IMG/VR virus record: IMGVR_UViG_3300006750_000004
Coordinates: 1 to 64,000 of that record
DNA: 64,000 bases
Source: a virus
Strand: one strand, 5' to 3'
Shown here: positions 8,922-63,257 of the stretch, piece after piece
How the letters are laid out: each line of letters starts with the position of its first letter
Numbering within the stretch: position 1 is the stretch's first letter
Notes under the pieces: model-generated
Told to the model about the DNA's origin: nothing
The model's database searches: none
Seen by the model: the letters and a program-made list of their open reading frames with translations, nothing else
Position numbers and translations under genes: made by a program

Positions 8922-10727
8922 ATGAAATTGGCAAAGATTATAACCCTAGATGACCCGTACTACCTCCAATTGCGACGGTTGTTGGATGGAGCACGGCCAA
9001 TGGTTGTAGAACACACAATTCTCAAACTCAAAAACGGCACTGGCCGAGCTTATCAAGAGCCACAGCCAATACCCTATATATTCATCGAATCCGTGCTTGA
9101 TAGCAATGTGATGAGTGAGGGCGGTCTTGGGGAATTGTTTAAAACAGGGGTTGCTAAACTCAAAGCCGCCCTAACACCAGGGCCTAGTGGGGACCTAGAA
9201 ACATTACTGACGTTTATGGCTCCCAGCAGTGGTGGTCTCCAACAAATCAACCAATTAATCCAACAGGCCAGTAAAGCCGAAGGATCTCTCCTAGACCCCG
9301 CCAATAGCGCTTGGTGGGAAGAACTCTATGGTGCATTTGGGGTAAACGATCAAGAGACTAAGACCGCCGTCCAACAACAAGTCCAGCAAGATCTCTTAAA
9401 TCCTCAACCTGAAGAGCAACCTGAAGAGCAAGCAGATCCCACGGGTCAAGAAGGAACTAACACTGGTGCCGGAGGTGGTAAACAAGCCGCAGTCCAACAT
9501 CGATTACAAATGCTCATAAAGAGGATGCAAGAATTAAAGGCCAAAGCTCAACCCGAACCAGCTCAACCCGAACCAGCTCAACCCGAACCAGCTCAACCCG
9601 AACCAGCTCAACCCGTCGCAAAAGAACTGACCAAGAAGGAAATTCATGACCATATTGCTCGTCTTCGAAAACTGAACCGAGAGGGAAACCTAAGTCAAGA
9701 AGGACAGGAAACCCTCACTCAACTCATCAATCAGCGCAACGCGCCAGCCGACGACGAAGAGCACTTGAACAAGAAGCAAATAATTATGCCTGGAGATACT
9801 CAGCACAGTATGCCGGAAAACCGGATTGTTGCTGAATTGGCTCTCTCACTTTTAACTGAACGATGTGTCAGAAATAATATTGGTATTATTGCGAACTTGA
9901 TGCTCCGGAAAATTGGCTCACCCCAATCTGTGAGGATGCCACTTATCAGTGAAGCCGGTCTAGTCAGTAAACTGAAAGACGCCATCGGCGGTATTCCCAA
10001 TAAATTATCAAGAATGGCAAATACTGCCACAGATATGGTGTCGAATCCGCAATATGCCCAACAGCAACTTGCTGCTTCTGGTGCTAGTAGTAATAATGAA
10101 CGTGCTGCTAAACAAGCAGTGCGGATTTTGACGGATAACTTGAGAGGCCAATTCGAATCTAAGTTGTCTGCAAATGGTCTGACTCCCGACCAAATTCAGA
10201 CTACTTTAGCATCATGGCAGAAATTGAGGCCACAGGCTGAACGTGGCGAAGAAAAAGCTTTGCAACAATACAACATTGCTGCCGAAACCTTGAAGAAAGC
10301 ATTCAAACTCTTCAATGTGGCTGATGGGTCAGAACCCGATGACTACAGCAGCGTCACTGGTGGTTTCGAATCATTGGAACCAGTCGGTGCGCCAGGGAGT
10401 GGTACCCAAATCAGTGGTGTCCAACCAGCTAAATATGGATTCGAGGAACAGGGGATTCCTGCAACATATCTCACTGGAGGTATGACCATGGAACAAACAG
10501 CTCAATTACAAGCCATATTAGCCCACGATCGGTTGGATGTAAATCAATCTTTAATCGTTTGGCGATTAATTACTGGTCGATCACCTGACATGGATAAATT
10601 CCGAGCTGCAATACAAAAAACTGGTAATTCTATACCAAAACCAAAACTCATCAAAGCAGCCAAAAATACTGCAGACAAGATTAGAGCAGCCAACTACGAT
10701 CGTGATAATCCTGTGACCGGATTTTGA
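8922..10727 (+). CDS. Large helical Q-rich protein, putative internal head protein
   Basis: 601-aa ORF; MKL start; several (L/I/M)xE sites (VMSE, LLTE, LISE); AQPEP repeats. Confidence 0.6.
   Translation: MKLAKIITLDDPYYLQLRRLLDGARPMVVEHTILKLKNGTGRAYQEPQPIPYIFIESVLDSNVMSEGGLGELFKTGVAKLKAALTPGPSGDLETLLTFMAPSSGGLQQINQLIQQASKAEGSLLDPANSAWWEELYGAFGVNDQETKTAVQQQVQQDLLNPQPEEQPEEQADPTGQEGTNTGAGGGKQAAVQHRLQMLIKRMQELKAKAQPEPAQPEPAQPEPAQPEPAQPVAKELTKKEIHDHIARLRKLNREGNLSQEGQETLTQLINQRNAPADDEEHLNKKQIIMPGDTQHSMPENRIVAELALSLLTERCVRNNIGIIANLMLRKIGSPQSVRMPLISEAGLVSKLKDAIGGIPNKLSRMANTATDMVSNPQYAQQQLAASGASSNNERAAKQAVRILTDNLRGQFESKLSANGLTPDQIQTTLASWQKLRPQAERGEEKALQQYNIAAETLKKAFKLFNVADGSEPDDYSSVTGGFESLEPVGAPGSGTQISGVQPAKYGFEEQGIPATYLTGGMTMEQTAQLQAILAHDRLDVNQSLIVWRLITGRSPDMDKFRAAIQKTGNSIPKPKLIKAAKNTADKIRAANYDRDNPVTGF
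9546..9615 (+). repeat. 15-bp tandem repeat GCTCAACCCGAACCA, about 4.7 copies (AQPEP)
   Basis: Perfect copies read directly from the sequence. Confidence 0.95.
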
Positions 10728-29722: not shown

Positions 29723-30347
29723 GGAGCGACAGAATTACGAATCCCAGTTTGATATCTGGTTGATTGTGTTGCTCTTCCTCGTAGTACTTGATTGTATATT
29801 TCTTAGTGAATGGGTCTAGAAAGTCTCTATTTGACAAAATTAGACCATTAGTATAATTGCTCCTGTAATTTGGTGATTCGATTGTTGTTGCACCAAGTTT
29901 GGTTTGGATTACCATGGTTGGCACAGCAATCGAATTCCAAATAGTCGCTATTTTCTTCCAATATTCATGGGTTGGGAAATGATGAATAACACTATAACAC
30001 ACTAGCAGGTCTGATTGTGTATCTGGTATTTGAGCATCTGGGTCTGAGAATTCGATTGTCTGAACAACCTTTTCACCGACGTAATCTGACGCTTCTTGGA
30101 GACTTTCTGAGGCAATGTCTAATAAAATAAGGTCTGAAAACTCTGAGATCATCTTCGCTAGCAATCCACCACCACACCCCCAATCAAGTGTCGTATTTAT
30201 AGCATCTGTGTCGATTTGGTCTAAAGCATGTTGCTGGAATCGGCCGATCAGCACTTGTTTCTTTTTAGGTCCTATCTTCTTTCTGAAGTGTTTATGTCCA
30301 TCACAGACTTGGCCCCTCCAGAATCGTTGTAAATCATTTGGTTCCAT
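29715..30347 (-). CDS. Class I SAM-dependent methyltransferase
   Basis: LDWGCGGG, LDI, YSVIHHFP; likely start MEPND in the second copy of the 40-bp repeat. Confidence 0.8.
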   Translation of the reverse strand: MEPNDLQRFWRGQVCDGHKHFRKKIGPKKKQVLIGRFQQHALDQIDTDAINTTLDWGCGGGLLAKMISEFSDLILLDIASESLQEASDYVGEKVVQTIEFSDPDAQIPDTQSDLLVCYSVIHHFPTHEYWKKIATIWNSIAVPTMVIQTKLGATTIESPNYRSNYTNGLILSNRDFLDPFTKKYTIKYYEEEQHNQPDIKLGFVILSLRD

Positions 30348-30404
30348 ACAATGCCTCGACCAATCGTTGTAAATCATTTGGTTCCATACAATGCCTCGAC
30401 CAAT
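30322..30404. repeat. Perfect 40-bp tandem duplication across a gene junction
   Basis: AATCGTTGTAAATCATTTGGTTCCATACAATGCCTCGACC at 30322 and 30362. Confidence 0.95.
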
Positions 30405-50348: not shown

Positions 50349-51632
50349 ATGAATTACTTTGAACTTGAATTATCCCGTGTGCTTGGGGAAGCATTACAAG
50401 ATAGTGGTCTGGTTGCACAAAAACTTGGCATAGATCTAGAAGTATTGCAACAGATCTTGGATAAAACGGACCCAACTGCGCACGGCAAGTATGCACAATT
50501 TATTGCTAAGTTGATGCTGCGAAAGCTTGTAAATCTTCCAAAAGATCGTGAACGAGTGTACCAAGCTCTAAGTGCGTTCGATAAGTTTAAAAAACACATT
50601 AAGCTCAAGGATATCAATCAATACAAATCTCTAGAAGATCTTGAAAAAACAGTTGACCCTTTCTTAGCAAAGATCTCTAACCGAAAAGGTGGTTCTGGAG
50701 ATATCTTTGGGCTTTCTGGAGTGACCCAAATCGATCGAGAAGGTGATTTCAGTCTGACAAAAGTTAGTAACCGCCGGTCACTAGAAGAAATTTCGAAAAA
50801 CACTAAATGGTGCACAAAAGCAAAGCTTGGCAAAGCTTTGACGTATCTCAAGACGTATAATCGCCTCTATCATGTTTTTTATAAAAACAAACCTGTCTTG
50901 ATGCTTACTCCGGACCTCTCCCAAATCATGGATCATGATAATGAGCCATATAATTTCGAAGATAAGAGAGTAAATCGGCTTATTTCATTTCTCAAGCCTT
51001 CCTGGTTACCAGAGGGGGTAGGTGAATATGCGACGTATTCTGTCTTTGCTGATGTAAGTCCTGAATTCATTCAGCAATATATTGTACTAGAGATACAGGA
51101 CGAGGTCGCGAATAGCATCAAGCGGTTCAATCAGGCACAGGAAAGGATGACCCCCGGCCCAGCGAGCCGTGAATCGCATGTGGGGCTACCTGTTGGGCCG
51201 AGGTGGAAAAGGACAATGCAATGGTCTGACTCGCATGATCGCATAGTGGAATCTTGTACTCCGAAAGCCAAGCATATAATATATAAAAAATTCAAATTTT
51301 TTGCGTACATGAGTACGGATGGCCAGCCAGCCCACGTCAATGGCTGGAGAAGCCCATCACGCCCGGTGGATGTGGCGGTTGGACTCAATCGATTCTACAT
51401 TCTCAATTATGCTTCTATGCCTCTTTATAAAGCACTCGTAGAAGCTGGTGTCCCTAATGATGAATTGCCGCGTTTTCGGAATAGGGCTCGGTCGGCTTGG
51501 AAACCTTATAAAGCACTCGTAGAAGCTGGTGTCCCTAATGATGAATTGCCGCGTTTAGAAGAGTCTAACTTTAGTCTTTCCGGAGAGCGCTGGTCGCTCG
51601 TGAATGCGCGCCCGCGCGCGCGCGGCTACTGA
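50349..51632 (+). CDS. Large-phage family protein (DPT..KY / KDINQYKS / TKWCT motifs)
   Basis: Motifs recalled from a multicopy jumbo-phage family; C-terminus has a duplicated peptide. Confidence 0.6.
   Translation: MNYFELELSRVLGEALQDSGLVAQKLGIDLEVLQQILDKTDPTAHGKYAQFIAKLMLRKLVNLPKDRERVYQALSAFDKFKKHIKLKDINQYKSLEDLEKTVDPFLAKISNRKGGSGDIFGLSGVTQIDREGDFSLTKVSNRRSLEEISKNTKWCTKAKLGKALTYLKTYNRLYHVFYKNKPVLMLTPDLSQIMDHDNEPYNFEDKRVNRLISFLKPSWLPEGVGEYATYSVFADVSPEFIQQYIVLEIQDEVANSIKRFNQAQERMTPGPASRESHVGLPVGPRWKRTMQWSDSHDRIVESCTPKAKHIIYKKFKFFAYMSTDGQPAHVNGWRSPSRPVDVAVGLNRFYILNYASMPLYKALVEAGVPNDELPRFRNRARSAWKPYKALVEAGVPNDELPRLEESNFSLSGERWSLVNARPRARGY
51425..51556 (+). repeat. Two perfect 51-bp direct repeats separated by 30 bp
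   Basis: 51425-51475 equals 51506-51556; encodes YKALVEAGVPNDELPR twice. Confidence 0.95.
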
Positions 51633-52974: not shown

Positions 52975-53190
52975 ATGAAAACTTCTGACGACGAACTGGC
53001 TGTCCGTAAAGTGAGTGAAGAGTTGCTCGACGCAGCCGTCCTCACTGAGAGCGCACTAGTCCACTTCGAAGACATCATCGTATCAGAACCAAGCGACAGT
53101 TTCGCCGCCGCTGTGATCCTCGCCCTCAAATCCGCTCATAACGTAATGAGCAAAGCATCCGACGATCTGACGAAAGTAGTGGGAGAATGA
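52975..53190 (+). CDS. Hypothetical helical protein
   Basis: AGGAG SD, 71 aa. Confidence 0.6.
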   Translation: MKTSDDELAVRKVSEELLDAAVLTESALVHFEDIIVSEPSDSFAAAVILALKSAHNVMSKASDDLTKVVGE

Positions 53191-53616
53191 TCAATATGCG
53201 ATTTCCTGGAATCCCTGCCATTGTTGCCAGCTAATAACATTCCAATTATCGCCATAATTGATTAGCCAAGATACACCATATGTGTCAGTTACCCAAATCA
53301 CAAATAGATCGTTAGTGAAATTTGGATCGCGTCCTGGAGTTATAACACGTCCAACTGGGAGGGTGGCGAAGTAACTGGGTACGACTGGAACGTCCTGATC
53401 CAACTCACCAAATCGACGACCATCAGGAAGTCCTTCTAGGATCCCATGTTTGTCGACAATATTGATCACGCCATTATTCTCTATTGCTTTGATACCCTCT
53501 TGATGGAAATAAGCAGCTATTTGTTCGGCTTCTTGTCGATTAGAACCATCATCGAATTGGTCGTTGTCTTCGAGACCGTCGTAGTCGGATGATTCGGTGA
53601 TATATTTAAGTTTCAT
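53191..53616 (-). CDS. YxGLED-tag family protein (1 tag)
   Basis: MKLKYITESSDYDGLEDNDQF followed by a unique domain. Confidence 0.75.
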   Translation of the reverse strand: MKLKYITESSDYDGLEDNDQFDDGSNRQEAEQIAAYFHQEGIKAIENNGVINIVDKHGILEGLPDGRRFGELDQDVPVVPSYFATLPVGRVITPGRDPNFTNDLFVIWVTDTYGVSWLINYGDNWNVISWQQWQGFQEIAY

Positions 53617-54422
53617 TAGTACTCGGCTGCACTGAAGATGTCTAATATTGCTTGGATGTCTTCTTCTTTGAGTTCTGGGCCGTTCCAGTCGTACCCAGTT
53701 ACTTCGTCACCCTGAATGGCCAGCCAGCCCACGTCAAGGCGGTCGTAGTAGAGAGTTAATCTACCTATGAATGGTTTGAAAGTTGGGTCAGGACTTCCTG
53801 CTTCTTGAGTAGCCAATAATTCAGCTTTTCTGGCTGGGTCTATATCCACGGGCTCGGGGTCTGCCGCATCACCGCCAGCTAGGGCATCGCCAGCTACGCG
53901 CGCGCGAATATTATCCACCATTGTGGTGCCGGGTTGTCCGGCTACTTGTATTTCAATAATCCAGGATCGTGATCCTTCTTCATTCTGGTCTTCTGGAACT
54001 GATGTTACATCTATTTGAACCCACCTGTCCATCATGTCGACAAGATGGAGACCCTCTTCACCGTGTGGGTCGTAGAATCTGTCGTTGTCTTCGAGACCGT
54101 CGTAGTCGGATGATTCGGTGAGCTTCGGACGCTTACGGAGATCCGAAGGGAACGCTGATTTTATACATTTTTTACATTGTCCAGATGACCCGAAACTCGG
54201 CAGTTCGCCACAAAATCCACAAAACAGATAATCACATTCAGTACAAGAAGCAAGGGATCGTTCATAACCACTCACATCACAATAATCACAATTTTCCATT
54301 GTATCTTGATCATCGTCATCTGGTTCCTCGATGAATTCGTCGGCGTCTTCGAGGCCGTCATAATCAGATTCGTCCGGATCTTCCGAAATCATTCTGGCTA
54401 TTTTTTTAGGGTCAATTTTCAT
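53616..54422 (-). CDS. YxGLED-tag family protein (2 tags; Zn finger plus second cargo)
   Basis: MKIDPKKIARMISEDPDESDYDGLEDADEF, four CxxC, KLTESSDYDGLEDNDRF. Confidence 0.75.
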   Translation of the reverse strand: MKIDPKKIARMISEDPDESDYDGLEDADEFIEEPDDDDQDTMENCDYCDVSGYERSLASCTECDYLFCGFCGELPSFGSSGQCKKCIKSAFPSDLRKRPKLTESSDYDGLEDNDRFYDPHGEEGLHLVDMMDRWVQIDVTSVPEDQNEEGSRSWIIEIQVAGQPGTTMVDNIRARVAGDALAGGDAADPEPVDIDPARKAELLATQEAGSPDPTFKPFIGRLTLYYDRLDVGWLAIQGDEVTGYDWNGPELKEEDIQAILDIFSAAEY

Positions 54423-54459
54423 ATCCGTCTCGTCAGTAAGCTTCAATGTTCTTGGCGTA

Positions 54460-55953
54460 CTATCGCCCGTCATCTCGTCGTCGCCAATCGAGTCGCTCTG
54501 CCTCCTCACAATTCGGACATCGCTCGCAGAAGGGACCGTGGATACAAGAACAAGAGAGAGGTAAGGCCGTAGTGCACCATTGACAATTCCAAAAATCACT
54601 TTGTTCTTGTTTTTCTACACATACATCGCACCACATTGTGTTGCAGGAGGCGCAATAAACACCGTGATTAATTATTGCAAGGGGGGAATCCCCCGTAGAT
54701 TCATCTTCTACTGGTGTGCCACACGTCGTGCATGGTGCACTATACCCTTCCGCATCGCTAAACTCATCGGCATCTTCAAGCCCCGCATATTCGCCAGACT
54801 CTCTAATATTGCTCTCGCGGGCGAAGTCTTCATCAGCTATGCAGTCTTGGCAGATATCAAGCGGGGATATTCCCCGCCATCCTGCATGTGAAGTACAATC
54901 GTCACACATTGATTGATTGCATTTGTAGCAATGTGTGACACGATCCCCTTCTTGCCAGGCAGTTCCACACCAACAAAAAGAATTATCTTGAAATTCATCG
55001 GCATCTTCAAGCCCGGCATATTCATTGGCATCTTCATTCACATTTTCAGGTCCAAGAGAACCATGTCCTTGGCAGTAGTCAGTCCGCTCCCCACAATCCG
55101 GACACGTCTCGCAGTATTCCGCATCGGGATCGCAAAATTCGTCGGCGTCCTCGAGTCCCTCGTATGATTCGTTTACGTTGCGTTTATTGGCGGAAGAGAT
55201 CCATTGTTGACGATTTGAGCGTCTAAAGAATCCTAATGGCCCTTCCCGTCCGTTGAATTCTTCCACATCCTGGTCGTTGGCGACCAGAAGTGCGCCGAGG
55301 TTCTGAATGAATTCTTCACTGTCCAAGTACTCTTTACATGATCGACAATATTGATCGTCCTGCTCTAGATCGTTAGTTCCACACACGCCGCAAACATTTG
55401 GTTCGCCGAATTCGTCGGCGTCCTCGAGTCCGGCATAGTCGGATTCGGTAATATGCTTGAGTTTCATTGGAGACCGACGCGCCTCGGACAACTCGCCGTC
55501 GTTCCAGAGATCCATATCTGGCGGCACAGTTTCCTTATAGTGAGCGAAAGCAATATCTTGGATGGCATCTCTTAGGATAGAGGGCTTTGATCCCAATTGG
55601 GGATTTTGGTTTTGGAACCATTGTTCATATTTGGGGTATTCGGCGAGAATAGCGTCTTTAATGCTATCTAGTTCTGAACACCAGCGACATTTGTCAAGGT
55701 CGTAGTCATTTCCGACAGCCCAAATTGGTGGGCCTGTACGAACTGGCTTTTCGAATGCTTCCGATCTGACGAAGATTATTACACTGTCAATATCCCTACT
55801 TTCTTGTTCGTACATGGTGTGAGCAGTGAAGAGATATGGTCCTACTTTCACTGGGCCATAATTATCTTGTTGCCATTCAGCTACGTCGTCAGTGAATTCG
55901 TCGGCGTCTTCGAGGCCGTCGTAGTCGGATTCGGTGATGTGGCGAAGTTTCAT
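54460..55953 (-). CDS. YxGLED-tag polyprotein (5 tags, multiple Zn fingers)
   Basis: Five Y[DAE]GLEDADEF motifs; internal MKLKHITE; many CxxC pairs. Confidence 0.8.
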   Translation of the reverse strand: MKLRHITESDYDGLEDADEFTDDVAEWQQDNYGPVKVGPYLFTAHTMYEQESRDIDSVIIFVRSEAFEKPVRTGPPIWAVGNDYDLDKCRWCSELDSIKDAILAEYPKYEQWFQNQNPQLGSKPSILRDAIQDIAFAHYKETVPPDMDLWNDGELSEARRSPMKLKHITESDYAGLEDADEFGEPNVCGVCGTNDLEQDDQYCRSCKEYLDSEEFIQNLGALLVANDQDVEEFNGREGPLGFFRRSNRQQWISSANKRNVNESYEGLEDADEFCDPDAEYCETCPDCGERTDYCQGHGSLGPENVNEDANEYAGLEDADEFQDNSFCWCGTAWQEGDRVTHCYKCNQSMCDDCTSHAGWRGISPLDICQDCIADEDFARESNIRESGEYAGLEDADEFSDAEGYSAPCTTCGTPVEDESTGDSPLAIINHGVYCASCNTMWCDVCVEKQEQSDFWNCQWCTTALPLSCSCIHGPFCERCPNCEEAERLDWRRRDDGR

Positions 55954-56004
55954 TGATGCTCCAGAATTTCATTGTATCTTCGCCCAGATGGTGCCGGTAT
56001 TTAA

Positions 56005-56625
56005 CGAGTGACGGTAGCCCAACTGCCGTCGACATAGTGGTGACGTTTACCACGAATGATTTCTGCTAATCTTGATCGGTTGGAGCATCGGTTCTTATGG
56101 TGTTCTTGTGGCTTCCTTCGGGGAGTCCGGGTCTCGACAAAGTCGGGTCACCTGCTTCCAACCACCTTACAGGACGTAAGGCTTAAAAGAAACACTGGGC
56201 CTATCTGATAATGATTATCGGCTGCCCGAGATTAAGATGACCGCAGGCTTGGTGAGAACATTGTTGGGGTTACCCAGTGTACCAGCAGACAGATTTGAGC
56301 GTCTAAAGAATCCTAATGGCCCTTGTGCAATTATTCAAGATAGTCCGAAGCTCAAGCGTAAAGTCTGTAAGCATTGGCAGTTGTAATATTTCATCAAGTA
56401 ACTCGACGTCCTTGAGAATGCCGAACCTGATAGAGCATTCGGACTCCCTGGCGGGAGTTGATGACGGCAAGGATATGGACCAGGGGTCGACCAGCACAAT
56501 TCTCCCCAAATCGATTTTAGTGTTGGAGCTTTCCTGAAATCTGAGAGCGGCAAGTCCGCTAACCCGCTTAATTTGTCAGAGACTAAATGAAAGTTTTTGG
56601 CGGTTAGGACGGGGGGAAACGATGT
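56005..56625 (+). ncRNA. Candidate large structured non-coding RNA (~620 nt)
   Basis: No credible ORF; more than 10 helices, a C(UUCG)G tetraloop, long-range pairs; G-U pairs favour the + strand. Confidence 0.6.
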
Positions 56626-56644
56626 CTATCTATAATACTTTCAA

Positions 56645-56791
56645 ATGACTAAAATCCAGAAATTGGAAGCCCCTGACTTTCTAATAGCTCTAAAGCTCAC
56701 ACTATTAATATCAGACCACGCTGGGGCAATCGCTGACACGTTGTTTTTATTGGACAAAGCTGGGCAATGTGCAGTCTATCGAAGGGACTAG
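56645..56791 (+). CDS. Small hypothetical protein (48 aa)
   Basis: MTKIQKLEAPDFLIALKL...; TATAAT at 56631; below the track cutoff. Confidence 0.35.
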   Translation: MTKIQKLEAPDFLIALKLTLLISDHAGAIADTLFLLDKAGQCAVYRRD

Positions 56792-57081
56792 CCATTATGA
56801 TTCTGCTCGATCCTCGCCAAATCATCCTTGAAGTACTGCTGGCAGGAATGGCAGACAATCAGTTGGCCAGATGGATCTTTTAGATTGAAATTGCTGATAC
56901 AATCGCTGCAGAAGTATGCATTTCGGCATCCATCACAACGGAACAACATATGTATTCCGAGTCCGCATGCGTCACATGTTTCCTTATCAACGAACTTGTC
57001 ATCGTCTTCGAGGCCGTCATAATCAGATTCGTCCGGATCTTCCGAAATCATTCTGGCTATTTTTTTAGGGTCAATTTTCAT
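56788..57081 (-). CDS. YxGLED-tag family Zn-finger protein
   Basis: MKIDPKKIARMISEDPDESDYDGLEDDDKF plus four CxxC. Confidence 0.75.
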   Translation of the reverse strand: MKIDPKKIARMISEDPDESDYDGLEDDDKFVDKETCDACGLGIHMLFRCDGCRNAYFCSDCISNFNLKDPSGQLIVCHSCQQYFKDDLARIEQNHNG

Positions 57082-57550
57082 GAATTATACGCCTATTTAT
57101 CGGAGGTTCGCCGGGGAGCCAACCATGATCGTCGGCATACCAAGCACGACCACCTGCCCCGTTTTTGGTCACAATGGCCCATTCATTTTCATTATCGATT
57201 TCTATTTCATAAGTATTATCGATCCCCCAATGTTCGTTTTTAGGATTATCTATTGTTGTTATATAACTATCTGGTTCTGACACCTCGTCTTCGTCATCTC
57301 CAGAAGGGAAATCAGCATCTATATATAATACTCCAAGCTTACCATGGCCCGCTGATACATATCCAGCTTCAACATTATAATGATTGAGAAAGTCTGCAAA
57401 GTTACCATTTTCATCCCCAAACTCATCGGCATCTTCAAGCCCCGCATATTCGTCATCTTGTTTGTTAGATATGTATTCATCGGAGCGATCACTAGGAATA
57501 TTCGGATCTTCCGAAATCATTCTGGCTATTTTTTTAGGGTCAATTTTCAT
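57071..57550 (-). CDS. YxGLED-tag family acidic protein
   Basis: MKIDPKKIARMISED...EYAGLEDADEF. Confidence 0.75.
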   Translation of the reverse strand: MKIDPKKIARMISEDPNIPSDRSDEYISNKQDDEYAGLEDADEFGDENGNFADFLNHYNVEAGYVSAGHGKLGVLYIDADFPSGDDEDEVSEPDSYITTIDNPKNEHWGIDNTYEIEIDNENEWAIVTKNGAGGRAWYADDHGWLPGEPPINRRIIHEN

Positions 57551-57639
57551 TTGCAAGCCTTATAATATAGAACTTTTTGATCACCAAGGGCCTGCTTCTC
57601 TAGACCATCTTTCCCAGGTACCCTCTTCTATTTCGTATT

Positions 57640-58143
57640 TCACACACGGTTTGTGCTGGCGGCAAGTTGTGCTGCGACGATTCGTGCTGCAATAATATTG
57701 GCAGCTACTGTGGGTTTGGTTCTGAGTGATGCTTGTGCTTGGGAGGTGAAATTAGCGACTATATTATCACCAATTTGTTGGAATTTATCGATTCCGGCTA
57801 GTCCATTATCAGCTCCGGCTGGAGAGCCATCCCGAAGTCGATTCCCGCCGATTCCATATGCTTGGCATGATTTAGCTAATTCATGTTCGATTAATTTTTC
57901 TAGTTTGATTGTCATTTCTTCTGGTGATTTGTTGATTATCCATTCGCGTAGTGGTCGGTCTTCGATACAATCGGTGCATACTTCTTCTGGTTCATGTTGC
58001 CGATGGGAGTATCGCCATCGTATTATATCTGCTGCATTAGATCCTATTCCGCAATCGACACATCCATCCGAGAATTGGTCATCGTCCTCGAGACCATAGT
58101 AGTCGGATTCTTGGTCGTTTTCGATTATGTGTCGTAGTTTCAT
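57640..58143 (-). CDS. YxGLED-tag family protein with Zn ribbon
   Basis: MKLRHIIE...DYYGLEDDDQF, CVDC..CTDC. Confidence 0.72.
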   Translation of the reverse strand: MKLRHIIENDQESDYYGLEDDDQFSDGCVDCGIGSNAADIIRWRYSHRQHEPEEVCTDCIEDRPLREWIINKSPEEMTIKLEKLIEHELAKSCQAYGIGGNRLRDGSPAGADNGLAGIDKFQQIGDNIVANFTSQAQASLRTKPTVAANIIAARIVAAQLAASTNRV

Positions 58144-58183
58144 ATTCTAATTTTGGCGGGATGTAGATAAAAGATATGATGAA

Positions 58184-58227
58184 ATTTTGTGTGAGAAATG
58201 AGTATATTTTGTGTGAGAAATGAGTAT
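58184..58227 (+). repeat. 22-bp tandem duplication spanning a start codon
   Basis: ATTTTGTGTGAGAAATGAGTAT twice. Confidence 0.92.
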
Positions 58228-59971
58228 GGCAGATAGTTGTGAAACCAAACCATTCCTGCCACGAAAGGGATCTGAAGGGGATGAGGTTTGTGACAAGTAC
58301 GGGAATCGTTGGAAGTATGATCTAGAGAGTAATGGTTGGATTTCTTCTGGCACGATTACTGATACTCCATTAGTCACAGAGAAGATAGATGGATTGATTA
58401 CATCTGATGCTTTTTCCAATCTTCGGAAATTGCAGACGTACGTTGATCTGGATCCGGACCTCAACACCTTTAAGATGCTCCCTGGTAGGGATGCATATTG
58501 GTACTATTTCCGATCCAGCGATAAGCTCTTCCGGTTTAGGCAGGAAGGAGAAGATTGCCTCCGTGTCGAGGTGGATAAGGGGCGGTTTTTTCAAATTTTG
58601 ATGAAGGAGGTGTGCCCCGGTACTAAGGGGCCAAAGGGAGAGAAGGGCGATAAAGGATTGCCGGGTAATGTTGGGACGGCGGAGGTTTGCTTTACTCCGT
58701 CAGCGATTAATGGCGATCAGATGGATTTCGCCATTTTTACCCCGACTCCGTTGGTTGAGAATGGTCCGATATCCCTGCCCGGTGGTGTTGTGCCTAATGT
58801 CTCTGTTCGGTTGTTTGAAGCAACTATCCCGATTGGTGCGACAGCTACGCAACAAGACCAGATGCAAGATCTGGCTATCTTCTTCAACAATCATGATCCA
58901 CGAGACGAGATACTTCCCAAATTCCAGGCTACTAGGGATTTGTTGCGGAAACGCAGTATGGGAATTATTGCTCAGGATAGTTTGTGCCAGATTCCTTTGA
59001 GTCAGGTTGCTGTTTTACCGTCTGGCACTACGTTAGCTGCTGCACCAAGTGTTACGGTTGAGGTGAATCCGGCAAATCCGTCTCAAGTCACTATTAGTGG
59101 TACTATTCCGGTTGATAATGTCCGTACTGCTAATTCGATTCAGTTTGATCCAGAAACGAATATTGCATGCGGTTCTATTATTTTGGAGCCAGGTAATCAA
59201 TGGTCTGACTTGGAAGCTGATGATTGGTGTATCAAGTCTCGTCAGAAAGGGCCGAATGGTCTGAAGGGGGATGCTGGAGAGTGTCGTATCAAGATCGTTG
59301 AGTGTTTGATCGATGATACGAATATTCGTGCTACGTGTCCTATTGTTAATGCGAGACTCGATTGTGATCGTGAGATAATTTATACCTTATGTTCTGATTT
59401 ATTGACAGAAATCTGTGTCGATAAAGTTAGTTTGCTCCCTGAGTCGACGACACTGGCGAATACCAATGCTTTTAAGAGTGTTTTTGCTGCGGCAGAGATG
59501 ACTCTTGAGGAATGTAAGAGAATCAACCGCTACAAAGTGGGATTAGAGGCGGATGAGCTGCCTGAACTTGATTTGTTGCATTGGGACCCACAACCAGGTT
59601 GTTCTACAAGGAGGCATTATGACAGACACAAGTTTAATTGGATTCCGGACACTGACCTTCCAGCATGTGATTCAACCGCTGCTTGGTTTGGGCCTGATAC
59701 GGTTCGATCTGGGAAGTATCCGCATGAGATTGTCATACCTCCAGAACCGCCAGTTGACGAGTGTTGTCAGGATGAATTCTTCTATTGTCCCAATGTTCAG
59801 GAAGCACCATGCACTGATGACCCGCCATCACCGCCATCACCGCCATCGCCACCGTCATCGCCGTTAGCGGCAGCAGCGGGTCGTGCGGAGGTAGGCGATA
59901 TACCGCTTGGTGGGAGACCCTCTTCTCCTCAACTTCAAATGGGTACGCGTAAGTGGCAGGTAAGGACTTAG
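58220..59971 (+). CDS. Cys-rich virion structural protein with short collagen-like segments
   Basis: GTKGPKGEKGDKGLPG, KGPNGLKGDAG; DKYGNRWKYD; PPS repeats. Confidence 0.65.
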   Translation: MSMADSCETKPFLPRKGSEGDEVCDKYGNRWKYDLESNGWISSGTITDTPLVTEKIDGLITSDAFSNLRKLQTYVDLDPDLNTFKMLPGRDAYWYYFRSSDKLFRFRQEGEDCLRVEVDKGRFFQILMKEVCPGTKGPKGEKGDKGLPGNVGTAEVCFTPSAINGDQMDFAIFTPTPLVENGPISLPGGVVPNVSVRLFEATIPIGATATQQDQMQDLAIFFNNHDPRDEILPKFQATRDLLRKRSMGIIAQDSLCQIPLSQVAVLPSGTTLAAAPSVTVEVNPANPSQVTISGTIPVDNVRTANSIQFDPETNIACGSIILEPGNQWSDLEADDWCIKSRQKGPNGLKGDAGECRIKIVECLIDDTNIRATCPIVNARLDCDREIIYTLCSDLLTEICVDKVSLLPESTTLANTNAFKSVFAAAEMTLEECKRINRYKVGLEADELPELDLLHWDPQPGCSTRRHYDRHKFNWIPDTDLPACDSTAAWFGPDTVRSGKYPHEIVIPPEPPVDECCQDEFFYCPNVQEAPCTDDPPSPPSPPSPPSSPLAAAAGRAEVGDIPLGGRPSSPQLQMGTRKWQVRT

Positions 59972-61744: not shown

Positions 61745-63257
61745 TTTTTCCAAAAAGATAAGAGTCCAAACCCAAGAAGTAAAGGTAGTACAATGCGAGA
61801 CGAAACCGTTAGCCGAGATGCCGCAGCTAAAAGCGAGTGCTGTGGTGGAGCCGAGAGTCAAGAAACTCCCCGAGAGGAAGAAGGCTGTTGCGGCAGAAAA
61901 GCTTCCAACCAAGAAGCCGATTCTGGGTGTTGTGGAGATGACCCCACTCCTACCAAGCTCCAATCCAAAACTTCCACAGACACCACTCCCACCAAGCTCC
62001 AATCCAAAACTTCCACAGACACCAAGTCCAAGCCCGGTGGCTGACGCCCTTTCAAGCGATAGCCGAGTTTCGGCTAATCCGAACTATCAAGTATACAGGC
62101 TCGGTGATGTCTTCACCGGTAGGAGAATATTGATGAAACAATTAGGGATTGATATCGGGACCAAAACTGTTGTCGTTGCCTATCGAGGTGATGACGGGGA
62201 AATTGGATATATCTCCGAAATCAATGGATGGTGGCCATTCGAGCGAGCCACAAAGTTCATTGAGAAACTTCTGGCCGATCCGACTAAAGTCCGATCTGAT
62301 GGTACGCAACGACCAGCTCGTTGGATTAAGATGCCAGAAACCAATCAAATCGTCGTATTAGGTAAAGACGCGGAAGAATTTGCGTATGCTAAGAACGACA
62401 CCCTACGCCGCCCTATGGCCGAGGGCGGTATCTCTGCAGACGAAGAGGCGATGATTATTCTTGCTAGTATCGTCCAAGGTCTTATGGAAATGGCGGAGAC
62501 TGAGTTAGGTGAATTTGGTGATTCAGTAAAGATTACTTATTGCACCACTGCCCCAGCCATCAATAAGAGATCCTCTAATGTAGAGTATCACGAGAGAGTC
62601 GTGAACTTGATCATCGAAGGATATGAAACCAAGGCCAAAGTTGAGCTGGTTGGTCCATACGACGATCATCAAGGTGCTATAAAAGAATCGCACGCTATCG
62701 TCCTGGATATGGACGATCAACACGGCAATGAAGGTACTGGCATTGGCATCTCGTGGGGGGCTGGTACCGTCACAGTCAGTTACGTGAAATGGGGAGAGGA
62801 AATCTATTCGTTCTGTTGGGTTGGTGCTGGTGACTGGATTGATAATGAAGTGGCTAAACGGCATGGGTACGAGCCTGATGTTATGAGTATAATGAAAAAG
62901 GCTAAGGAAACACCTACTACCGTTGCCAAGCGGAAAGAGACAGTTGACCTAACCCCAGGAATAGAACCAGAAGATCGCGTTGGCCTAGATATTGTGCTAC
63001 ATTATGACGTGCTCATCGCCAAAGTCATTGAAGGTGTGGTAGCCGGATTTGTAGAGAATGAAGACAGAGCCCGTATTGATGGTGCTGTCAATATTTATAT
63101 GGCTGGTGGTACTAGCTCCCCACAAGGATTCGTGGAACGTGTGGCTGCCAAGTTTGACGAGAAAGATCTACCGTTCGAAATCGGTCAGATTTTCAAATCT
63201 GATAAGCCTCTCTATTGTGTGGCTACTGGTTGTCTCAAGGCAGCTGAAATGTTCTAA
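61728..63257 (+). CDS. Actin-like ATPase (MreB/ParM superfamily); core starts at 62133, with an in-frame Pro/Lys-rich extension
   Basis: GIDIGTKT, LRRPM..G, ESHA, GISWGAGT, AGGTS, PLYCVATG. Confidence 0.82.
   Translation: MMAIHNFSKKIRVQTQEVKVVQCETKPLAEMPQLKASAVVEPRVKKLPERKKAVAAEKLPTKKPILGVVEMTPLLPSSNPKLPQTPLPPSSNPKLPQTPSPSPVADALSSDSRVSANPNYQVYRLGDVFTGRRILMKQLGIDIGTKTVVVAYRGDDGEIGYISEINGWWPFERATKFIEKLLADPTKVRSDGTQRPARWIKMPETNQIVVLGKDAEEFAYAKNDTLRRPMAEGGISADEEAMIILASIVQGLMEMAETELGEFGDSVKITYCTTAPAINKRSSNVEYHERVVNLIIEGYETKAKVELVGPYDDHQGAIKESHAIVLDMDDQHGNEGTGIGISWGAGTVTVSYVKWGEEIYSFCWVGAGDWIDNEVAKRHGYEPDVMSIMKKAKETPTTVAKRKETVDLTPGIEPEDRVGLDIVLHYDVLIAKVIEGVVAGFVENEDRARIDGAVNIYMAGGTSSPQGFVERVAAKFDEKDLPFEIGQIFKSDKPLYCVATGCLKAAEMF
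61944..62024 (+). repeat. 39-bp near-perfect tandem duplication (PLxPSSNPKLPQT twice)
   Basis: Read directly from the sequence. Confidence 0.9.

Follow-up and report, generated by a model that had tools for sequence, protein, structure and literature searches.

A sequence of 33 nt that occurs in a candidate non-coding RNA of a marine phage would be perfectly complementary to the mRNA of the adjacent polyprotein gene, which raises the question of how such a match came about. An earlier note on this DNA had put forward two possibilities: the RNA carries a guide or antisense segment that is aimed at the array of tags and cargos, or one of the two loci received a copied fragment of the other. The window analyzed here comprises 64 kb and represents the first part of a 95.7-kb IMG/VR virus record with a CheckV completeness of 26%; the source is therefore a large phage. 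The record carries SbcC-like and helicase genes, and the phage is present in marine metagenomes from 15 studies. No RNA data set is listed among its public runs, which carries no information on expression. Our analysis argues for copying: the sequence in the polyprotein gene is probably the scar of a templated insertion that stems from a hairpin of the RNA gene, and not the counterpart of a dedicated RNA guide.

Occurrence of the 33-nt Repeat

The exact 33-mer is found twice in the window, at positions 55212–55244 and 56292–56324, in both cases on the + strand. The two copies (33 of 33 nt identical) are thus located on the same strand in direct orientation, at a distance of 1,080 nt. No further copy with up to three mismatches was detected in the window, and in the whole 95.7-kb virus record these two are the only copies. 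A search of IMG/VR for the 33-mer gave no exact match, and nothing was found when the region 53000–58300 was compared to GenBank phages by BLASTN. No such pair was seen in 100 shuffles, and none is expected by chance.

Four marine metagenomes, each from a different study, were considered in the form of their Logan contigs. All four unique flanks are present in these contigs, and the repeat copies show no differences. The contigs end at both copies of the 33-mer, as expected of a k=31 graph, and they cannot tell which flank joins which over a repeat of 33 nt. Linkage is provided by the original assembly and by L038, an independent metagenome contig of 1,194 nt (99.85% identical), which spans the RNA copy plus both its flanks. 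With two copies, the result of the shuffles, the four metagenomes and L038, the presence of the exact 33-mer at both places beyond chance, as claimed in the earlier note, is borne out.

The Second Copy Lies in a Predicted Structured RNA

The polyprotein gene starts at 55953 on the minus strand, and 835 nt separate this start from the next gene on that strand. The gap contains an element of ~640 nt (55990–56620, + strand), which has the polyprotein start on one side and a small + strand ORF on the other, and which is supported by homology, substitution pattern and consensus fold. A homologue stems from G001, a related phage record (146.8 kb, 41% complete) that was reached via the shared YxGLEDADEF tag. 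It shows 75% identity over ~650 nt and likewise lies beside a tag polyprotein. The substitutions between the window and G001 show no periodicity with respect to codon position (56/55/58). All 12 indels of the alignment comprise 1, 2 or 4 bases, none of them a multiple of three, and 103 transitions and 66 transversions were counted.

For the consensus fold, an energy of −188 kcal/mol was calculated on the + strand, with 172 pairs and 24 compensatory plus 26 one-sided changes, compared to −116 kcal/mol and 135 pairs on the minus strand. Shuffling of alignment columns resulted in z values of −10.6 for the + strand versus −5.1 for the minus strand, and the number of G-U cells was 59 for the + strand versus 25 for the minus strand. 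The informative fold is this two-sequence consensus of window and G001 only; when the entire intergenic region was folded as one sequence by itself, the result was not separable from shuffles (z of −1.3 for the + strand and −0.2 for the minus strand). The consensus supports the reading of the element as a putative + strand structured RNA of ~640 nt, opposite to the array genes. The segment would be antisense to the polyprotein mRNA, with perfect complementarity over 33 nt, if the RNA is read from the + strand, as favored by the consensus fold.

In an Rfam scan of the window no family was matched, and the sole match in the region was at chance level (E = 8.6) and did not reach the gathering score. 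Promoter and terminator scans of 55700–57000 gave results at or under the level of shuffled sequences. Homologues of the RNA were sought with conserved 15- to 18-mers in collections of viruses, metagenomes and genomes; apart from chance matches, this returned G001 and the near-identical L038 only. A 15-mer scan of bacterial genomes, a pattern ill-suited to them, likewise gave chance matches only, and when 23 loci and 15 virus records with tags were scanned with a covariance model of the 5′ half of the RNA (R1), no new member was detected. Judged from alignment and fold, the ~640 nt represent a structured RNA that is conserved, does not code for protein and belongs to an unclassified family.

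In the window as well as in G001, the RNA is followed by a conserved GGACGGGGGGA and then by the small + strand ORF. Since a small ORF follows the RNA in both phages, the structured element could also be a long leader of this ORF and not a free-standing RNA. The RNA itself ends in a conserved UUAGGACGGGGGGA ahead of the ORF in both phages (window 56600–56791; L025:1302–1520, minus strand), and the ORF has 48 aa in the window and ~62–72 aa in G001, where a NUDIX gene comes next. At 56165–56181 the RNA of the window forms a hairpin with the loop AGGAC, and its stem is kept in G001 by compensatory changes. This loop could be read as a CsrA site, but the loop in G001 is AUGAA, and the GGA is thus not conserved.

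The second copy of the 33-mer is part of a variable hairpin domain that extends from 56285 to 56368 (+ strand), as given by the consensus fold and by conservation against G001. Two compensatory changes compared to G001 are found in the outer stem (56285–56290 with 56363–56368), one compensatory and one wobble change in the inner stem (56294–56299 with 56351–56356). The inner stem is closed by a weakly structured terminal loop. The 33-mer begins with 2 bases that are unpaired, continues through the 5′ arm of this inner stem (56294–56299) and includes the first 25 bases of the loop. Within the RNA, conservation is lowest at the tip of the hairpin, with 7–12 identities per 20 columns versus 13–19 over most of the rest. 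Homology to G001 is unbroken on both sides of the copy, and the loop has a length of ~51 nt in the window versus 47 nt in G001.

The First Copy Coincides with an In-Frame Length Difference

The tag-and-cargo polyprotein ORF (54460–55953, minus strand) encodes 497 aa with five YxGLEDADEF tags. The first copy of the 33-mer (55212–55244) is read on the minus strand, encodes E237–R248 and is located in cargo 2 (residues 163–261). As the earlier note had described, it lies near the end of a cargo and ahead of the next ESYEGLEDADEF tag; this is the third tag of the protein, and the distance to it is 14 residues.

By a search of protein collections we found P0003, a metagenomic polyprotein of 501 aa with 43% identity overall. 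It has the same cargo 2 (68 of 76 aligned residues identical, 89%), and its other modules differ. The alignment of cargo 2 shows exactly two gaps, of 10 and 18 residues. What P0003 lacks in the gap of 10 residues is exactly GPLGFFRRSN (30 nt, 55213–55242), and these 30 bases are the inner core of the 33-mer, which on the coding strand divides into 2 + 30 + 1. Position 55212 (1 base) and positions 55243–55244 (2 bases) would be common to the uninserted sequence. The one witness of this empty site, P0003, is known as a protein, and the microhomology at the junctions is deduced from the protein alignment. Exhaustive HMMER and word-index searches gave no orthologues of cargo 2 beyond P0003, and no related loci were found in viral contigs, neither with the polyprotein nor with P0003 as query. 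The insert is present in all four members of the 90% cluster of the window protein (contigs of up to 189 kb); it is fixed in these four protein variants and in all four metagenomes examined. Such fixation fits neutrality but selection as well.

The gap of 18 residues corresponds to a second in-frame length difference of 54 nt (55255–55308, minus strand), 10 nt from the 33-mer. This piece is flanked by a 10-nt direct repeat, TGAATTCTTC, at 55254–55263 and 55308–55317. A donor was sought in the record and none was found; the 54 nt could result from a slippage deletion in P0003 or from an insertion in the window phage. The 30 bases in the gene have no flanking direct repeat.

The neighboring genes show some further features. 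In G001 the polyprotein beside the RNA (L025:2141–3478) starts with a PF05618 domain (Zn_protease, RimB-like; E = 1e-33), which is followed by tags. This domain is absent at the window polyprotein and elsewhere in the 95.7-kb record. In the window the conserved ATGAAATTC start is retained at 55954–55975, and the polyprotein itself begins 15 nt downstream of it in another frame. A tagged protein of 97 aa (56788–57081) matches a MYND-type zinc finger (PF01753, E = 7.5e-5, just above the cut-off), and most cargos are Cys-rich and without a family.

The RNA Gene as Probable Donor of the Insertion

The borders of the repeat are the borders of the indel, and therefore one event accounts for both. 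The 5′ arm of the inner stem, which is part of the 33-mer, pairs and covaries with a 3′ arm that lies outside of it, which identifies the RNA gene as the original place of this sequence. Compared to its orthologue the polyprotein gene has 30 additional bases, and the RNA hairpin shows no length change compared to G001; therefore the RNA gene (56292–56324) is the donor and the polyprotein gene (55212–55244) the recipient. The donor locus is unchanged, with stem arms that pair and with homology to both sides. Of the two possibilities raised for this locus, the copying of a fragment is the one supported by these data, and its direction is from the RNA gene to the polyprotein gene.

Templated insertions of short pieces at microhomology have been described as a class of mutation (PMC8421209, PMC7954356, PMC11724301). 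We propose that during replication or break repair, synthesis at the linker of cargo 2 switched briefly to another template. This template would have been the sequence of the variable hairpin in the neighboring RNA gene, 1,080 nt off on the same strand. About 30 bases would have been copied before synthesis switched back at 1–2 bases of microhomology. The outcome would be an in-frame GPLGFFRRSN in a tolerant linker 14 residues ahead of the next tag, and the insertion is by now fixed in the population of this phage. With the RNA gene on the + strand and the polyprotein gene on the opposite one, such copying would create complementarity between RNA and mRNA. The perfect complementarity over 33 nt would then be a by-product, presumably without a selected function.

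The same repeat could have arisen in other ways. If the 30 bases were ancestral in cargo 2, the hairpin of the RNA would have received a copy of them from the gene, and a precise deletion would later have removed them in the lineage of P0003. The linker of P0003 may indeed be prone to deletion, considering the slippage-like difference of 54 nt nearby with its 10-nt direct repeat. However, this reversed direction requires two independent events that share identical borders, and around the 30 bases in the gene there is no direct repeat. In addition, the RNA loop shows no gain in length compared to G001, and the stem arm within the 33-mer has its pairing partner outside. We regard the reversed direction as very unlikely. 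Just as improbable in our view is an insertion templated by RNA, in which the abundant structured RNA itself served for repair of a break in the polyprotein gene. Such a process would be in line with the RNA gene as donor and with the copied part being its open loop, but a reverse transcriptase domain (PF00078) was not found in the 95.7-kb record, a DNA template at a distance of 1 kb explains the copy equally well, and two other patches in the region (see below) have protein-coding donors.

The two 33-mers might also be the ends of a mobile or duplicated block of 1,080 bp, as left by a target-site duplication or a recombination cassette, or they might result from an assembly chimera. Direct repeats at a distance of 1,080 bp, which is a multiple of three, would be compatible with this view, as would the break of short-read graphs at both copies. 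On the other hand, the homology of the G001 RNA passes the second copy and that of the P0003 cargo passes the first, so that neither copy bounds an inserted block. Because of this continuity across both copies, a cassette or a target-site duplication was rejected. A joint 55244–56325 was not reported in the four metagenomes, and L038 spans the second copy in its context. Taken as a whole, a block or a chimera is the least probable of these origins and extremely unlikely. A templated insertion from the RNA gene into the polyprotein gene is the origin that we prefer.

Further Short Repeats in the Same Region

Two further short ectopic patches are found in the same 5-kb region. One is an inverted repeat of 36 nt (94%, with an exact core of 26 nt) at 53360–53395 in a 141-aa gene and at 53678–53713 at the C-terminus of a 327-aa gene. 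The repeat is coding in both genes, which are adjacent, tagged and located on the minus strand. In the 327-aa gene the copy encodes the conserved TGYDWNGP; in the 141-aa gene it falls in a stretch that is variable compared to G001. If present on one transcript, the two arms would make a 36-bp stem around the gene junction. The other patch is an exact repeat of 22 nt at 51319–51340 (456-aa gene on the + strand, DGQPAHVN) and 53716–53737 (327-aa gene on the minus strand, LDVGWLAI). The latter copy is only two bases away from an arm of the 36-nt inverted repeat, and its GWLA is conserved in P0004. For both patches, the protein sequence at the copy of the 327-aa gene is conserved in P0002 and/or P0004, and this gene is therefore probably the source of both.

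Outside this region, and besides tags and tandem repeats, the only other dispersed exact repeats of at least 18 nt in the record are one 18-mer and a 22-nt inverted pair, which resembles a terminator hairpin. Elsewhere in the window, tandem duplications that are exact or nearly so are present inside ORFs at 30322–30404, 51425–51556, 61940–62024 and 9545–9619, with units of 40, 51 (spaced 81), 39 and 15 nt, respectively.

The patches suggest that short pieces have been copied from templates in this neighborhood before, in direct as well as inverted orientation. This agrees better with a process of mutation than with a dedicated guide. All three patches, including the 33-mer, would yield RNA-RNA complementarity with the array mRNA; as an argument against a scar, three out of three is weak, with a chance of about 1 in 8.

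Possible Pairing of the RNA with the Polyprotein mRNA

Irrespective of its origin, the match could be kept by selection. In a functional trans-antisense pair, the loop of the + strand RNA would bind to the polyprotein mRNA just before the third tag and would lower or cut the expression of the downstream cargo, e.g., through a host double-strand RNase. For the duplex of the window loop with the polyprotein mRNA an energy of −68.4 kcal/mol was calculated, versus −38.4 ± 2.4 kcal/mol for shuffled loops, and the 33 nt are perfectly complementary. The segment is exposed in a weakly structured terminal loop and represents the most variable part of a conserved RNA, the favored strand of this RNA is opposite to the array genes, and the match is fixed in the sampled population. 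A perfect match of 33 nt to a probably co-expressed neighboring RNA would also resemble a young antisense pair, and this weighs against a scar.

The sole homologous RNA does not show such a target. Within the 146.8-kb G001 record (41% complete), no second copy of at least 14 nt of the G001 loop was detected, the longest other match being 13 nt. The best duplex of the G001 loop with its neighboring polyprotein mRNA has −35.8 kcal/mol, compared to −38.5 ± 2.9 kcal/mol for shuffled loops, and thus no excess of pairing. A target of the window type in the adjacent array is absent in G001, and a distant target could exist there, as 41% of the genome is covered. In this one homologue, the data speak against a guide or antisense segment that targets the array. 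It had been suggested to look for a segment that varies and that tracks a target in each genome; the variability was found, whereas the G001 version has no partner in the 146.8 kb available.

Two further points speak against antisense function. The gene copy arose by insertion from the RNA gene, which means that the RNA did not evolve toward its target, and a gene for RNase III was not found in the 95.7-kb record, which represents 26% of the genome. We consider a functional antisense pair to be unlikely but not negligible, and there is a correspondingly small chance that the phage now makes use of the complementarity. Marginally less likely still is a recurrent partnership of the variable loop with the tag-cargo array, be it as a young antisense regulator, whose match stems from insertion of its own sequence into the target mRNA and is now maintained by selection, or as a preferred donor of short in-frame patches that diversify the linkers. 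The scar of a templated insertion remains our preferred explanation of the match.

Comparison to Known Systems

The insertion shares several features with templated insertions known from other organisms. In both cases tens of bases identical to a nearby sequence are found at an ectopic site, the donor is unchanged, and direct as well as inverted copies occur in the same neighborhood; the 1–2 shared bases per junction, as deduced here from the protein alignment, would agree as well. Templated insertions are known mostly from eukaryotic or cancer genomes or from induced breaks in yeast, whereas the present case stems from a marine phage and its mechanism is deduced from the traces that it would have left. 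Here the donor is the gene of a structured RNA, the recipient is a coding linker, and the copy is in frame.

CopA/CopT and RNA I/RNA II are trans-acting antisense RNAs that meet their targets via an exposed loop. The RNA described here has in common with them an unstructured hairpin loop that is fully complementary to the mRNA of a neighboring gene. In contrast to these systems, the complementarity arose by insertion from the RNA gene into the target and is absent in one homologous system. With ~640 nt, the RNA also has many conserved helices without any link to the target.

A non-coding template beside a variable protein gene and a common repeat are also typical of a diversity-generating retroelement. 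However, no reverse transcriptase (PF00078) was found in the 95.7-kb record, the match is exact and not adenine-mutated, and the repeat comprises 33 nt only and lies in a linker instead of a ligand-binding C-terminus. The bridge RNA of IS110 and the omega RNA of IS200/605 resemble our RNA in being structured and in having a variable loop that matches a nearby DNA site. They differ in several respects: our RNA has no Rfam match, no recombinase or TnpB-like gene is present among the neighbors scanned, the match comprises 33 contiguous bases, while those guides are short and split, and the homologue has no target.

Taken as a scar, the insertion adds a new case to a class of mutation that is already known, on a conserved RNA that is unclassified. 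It would illustrate that an exact match of an RNA gene to a neighboring mRNA, however striking, can arise through ordinary templated mutation. A simple test to distinguish a scar from a guide is to look for the empty site in an orthologue and for a length change at the donor. The more interesting object at this locus is the ~640-nt RNA of unclassified family. For the hypervariable tag-cargo genes of marine phages, short in-frame templated patches may represent one route of change.
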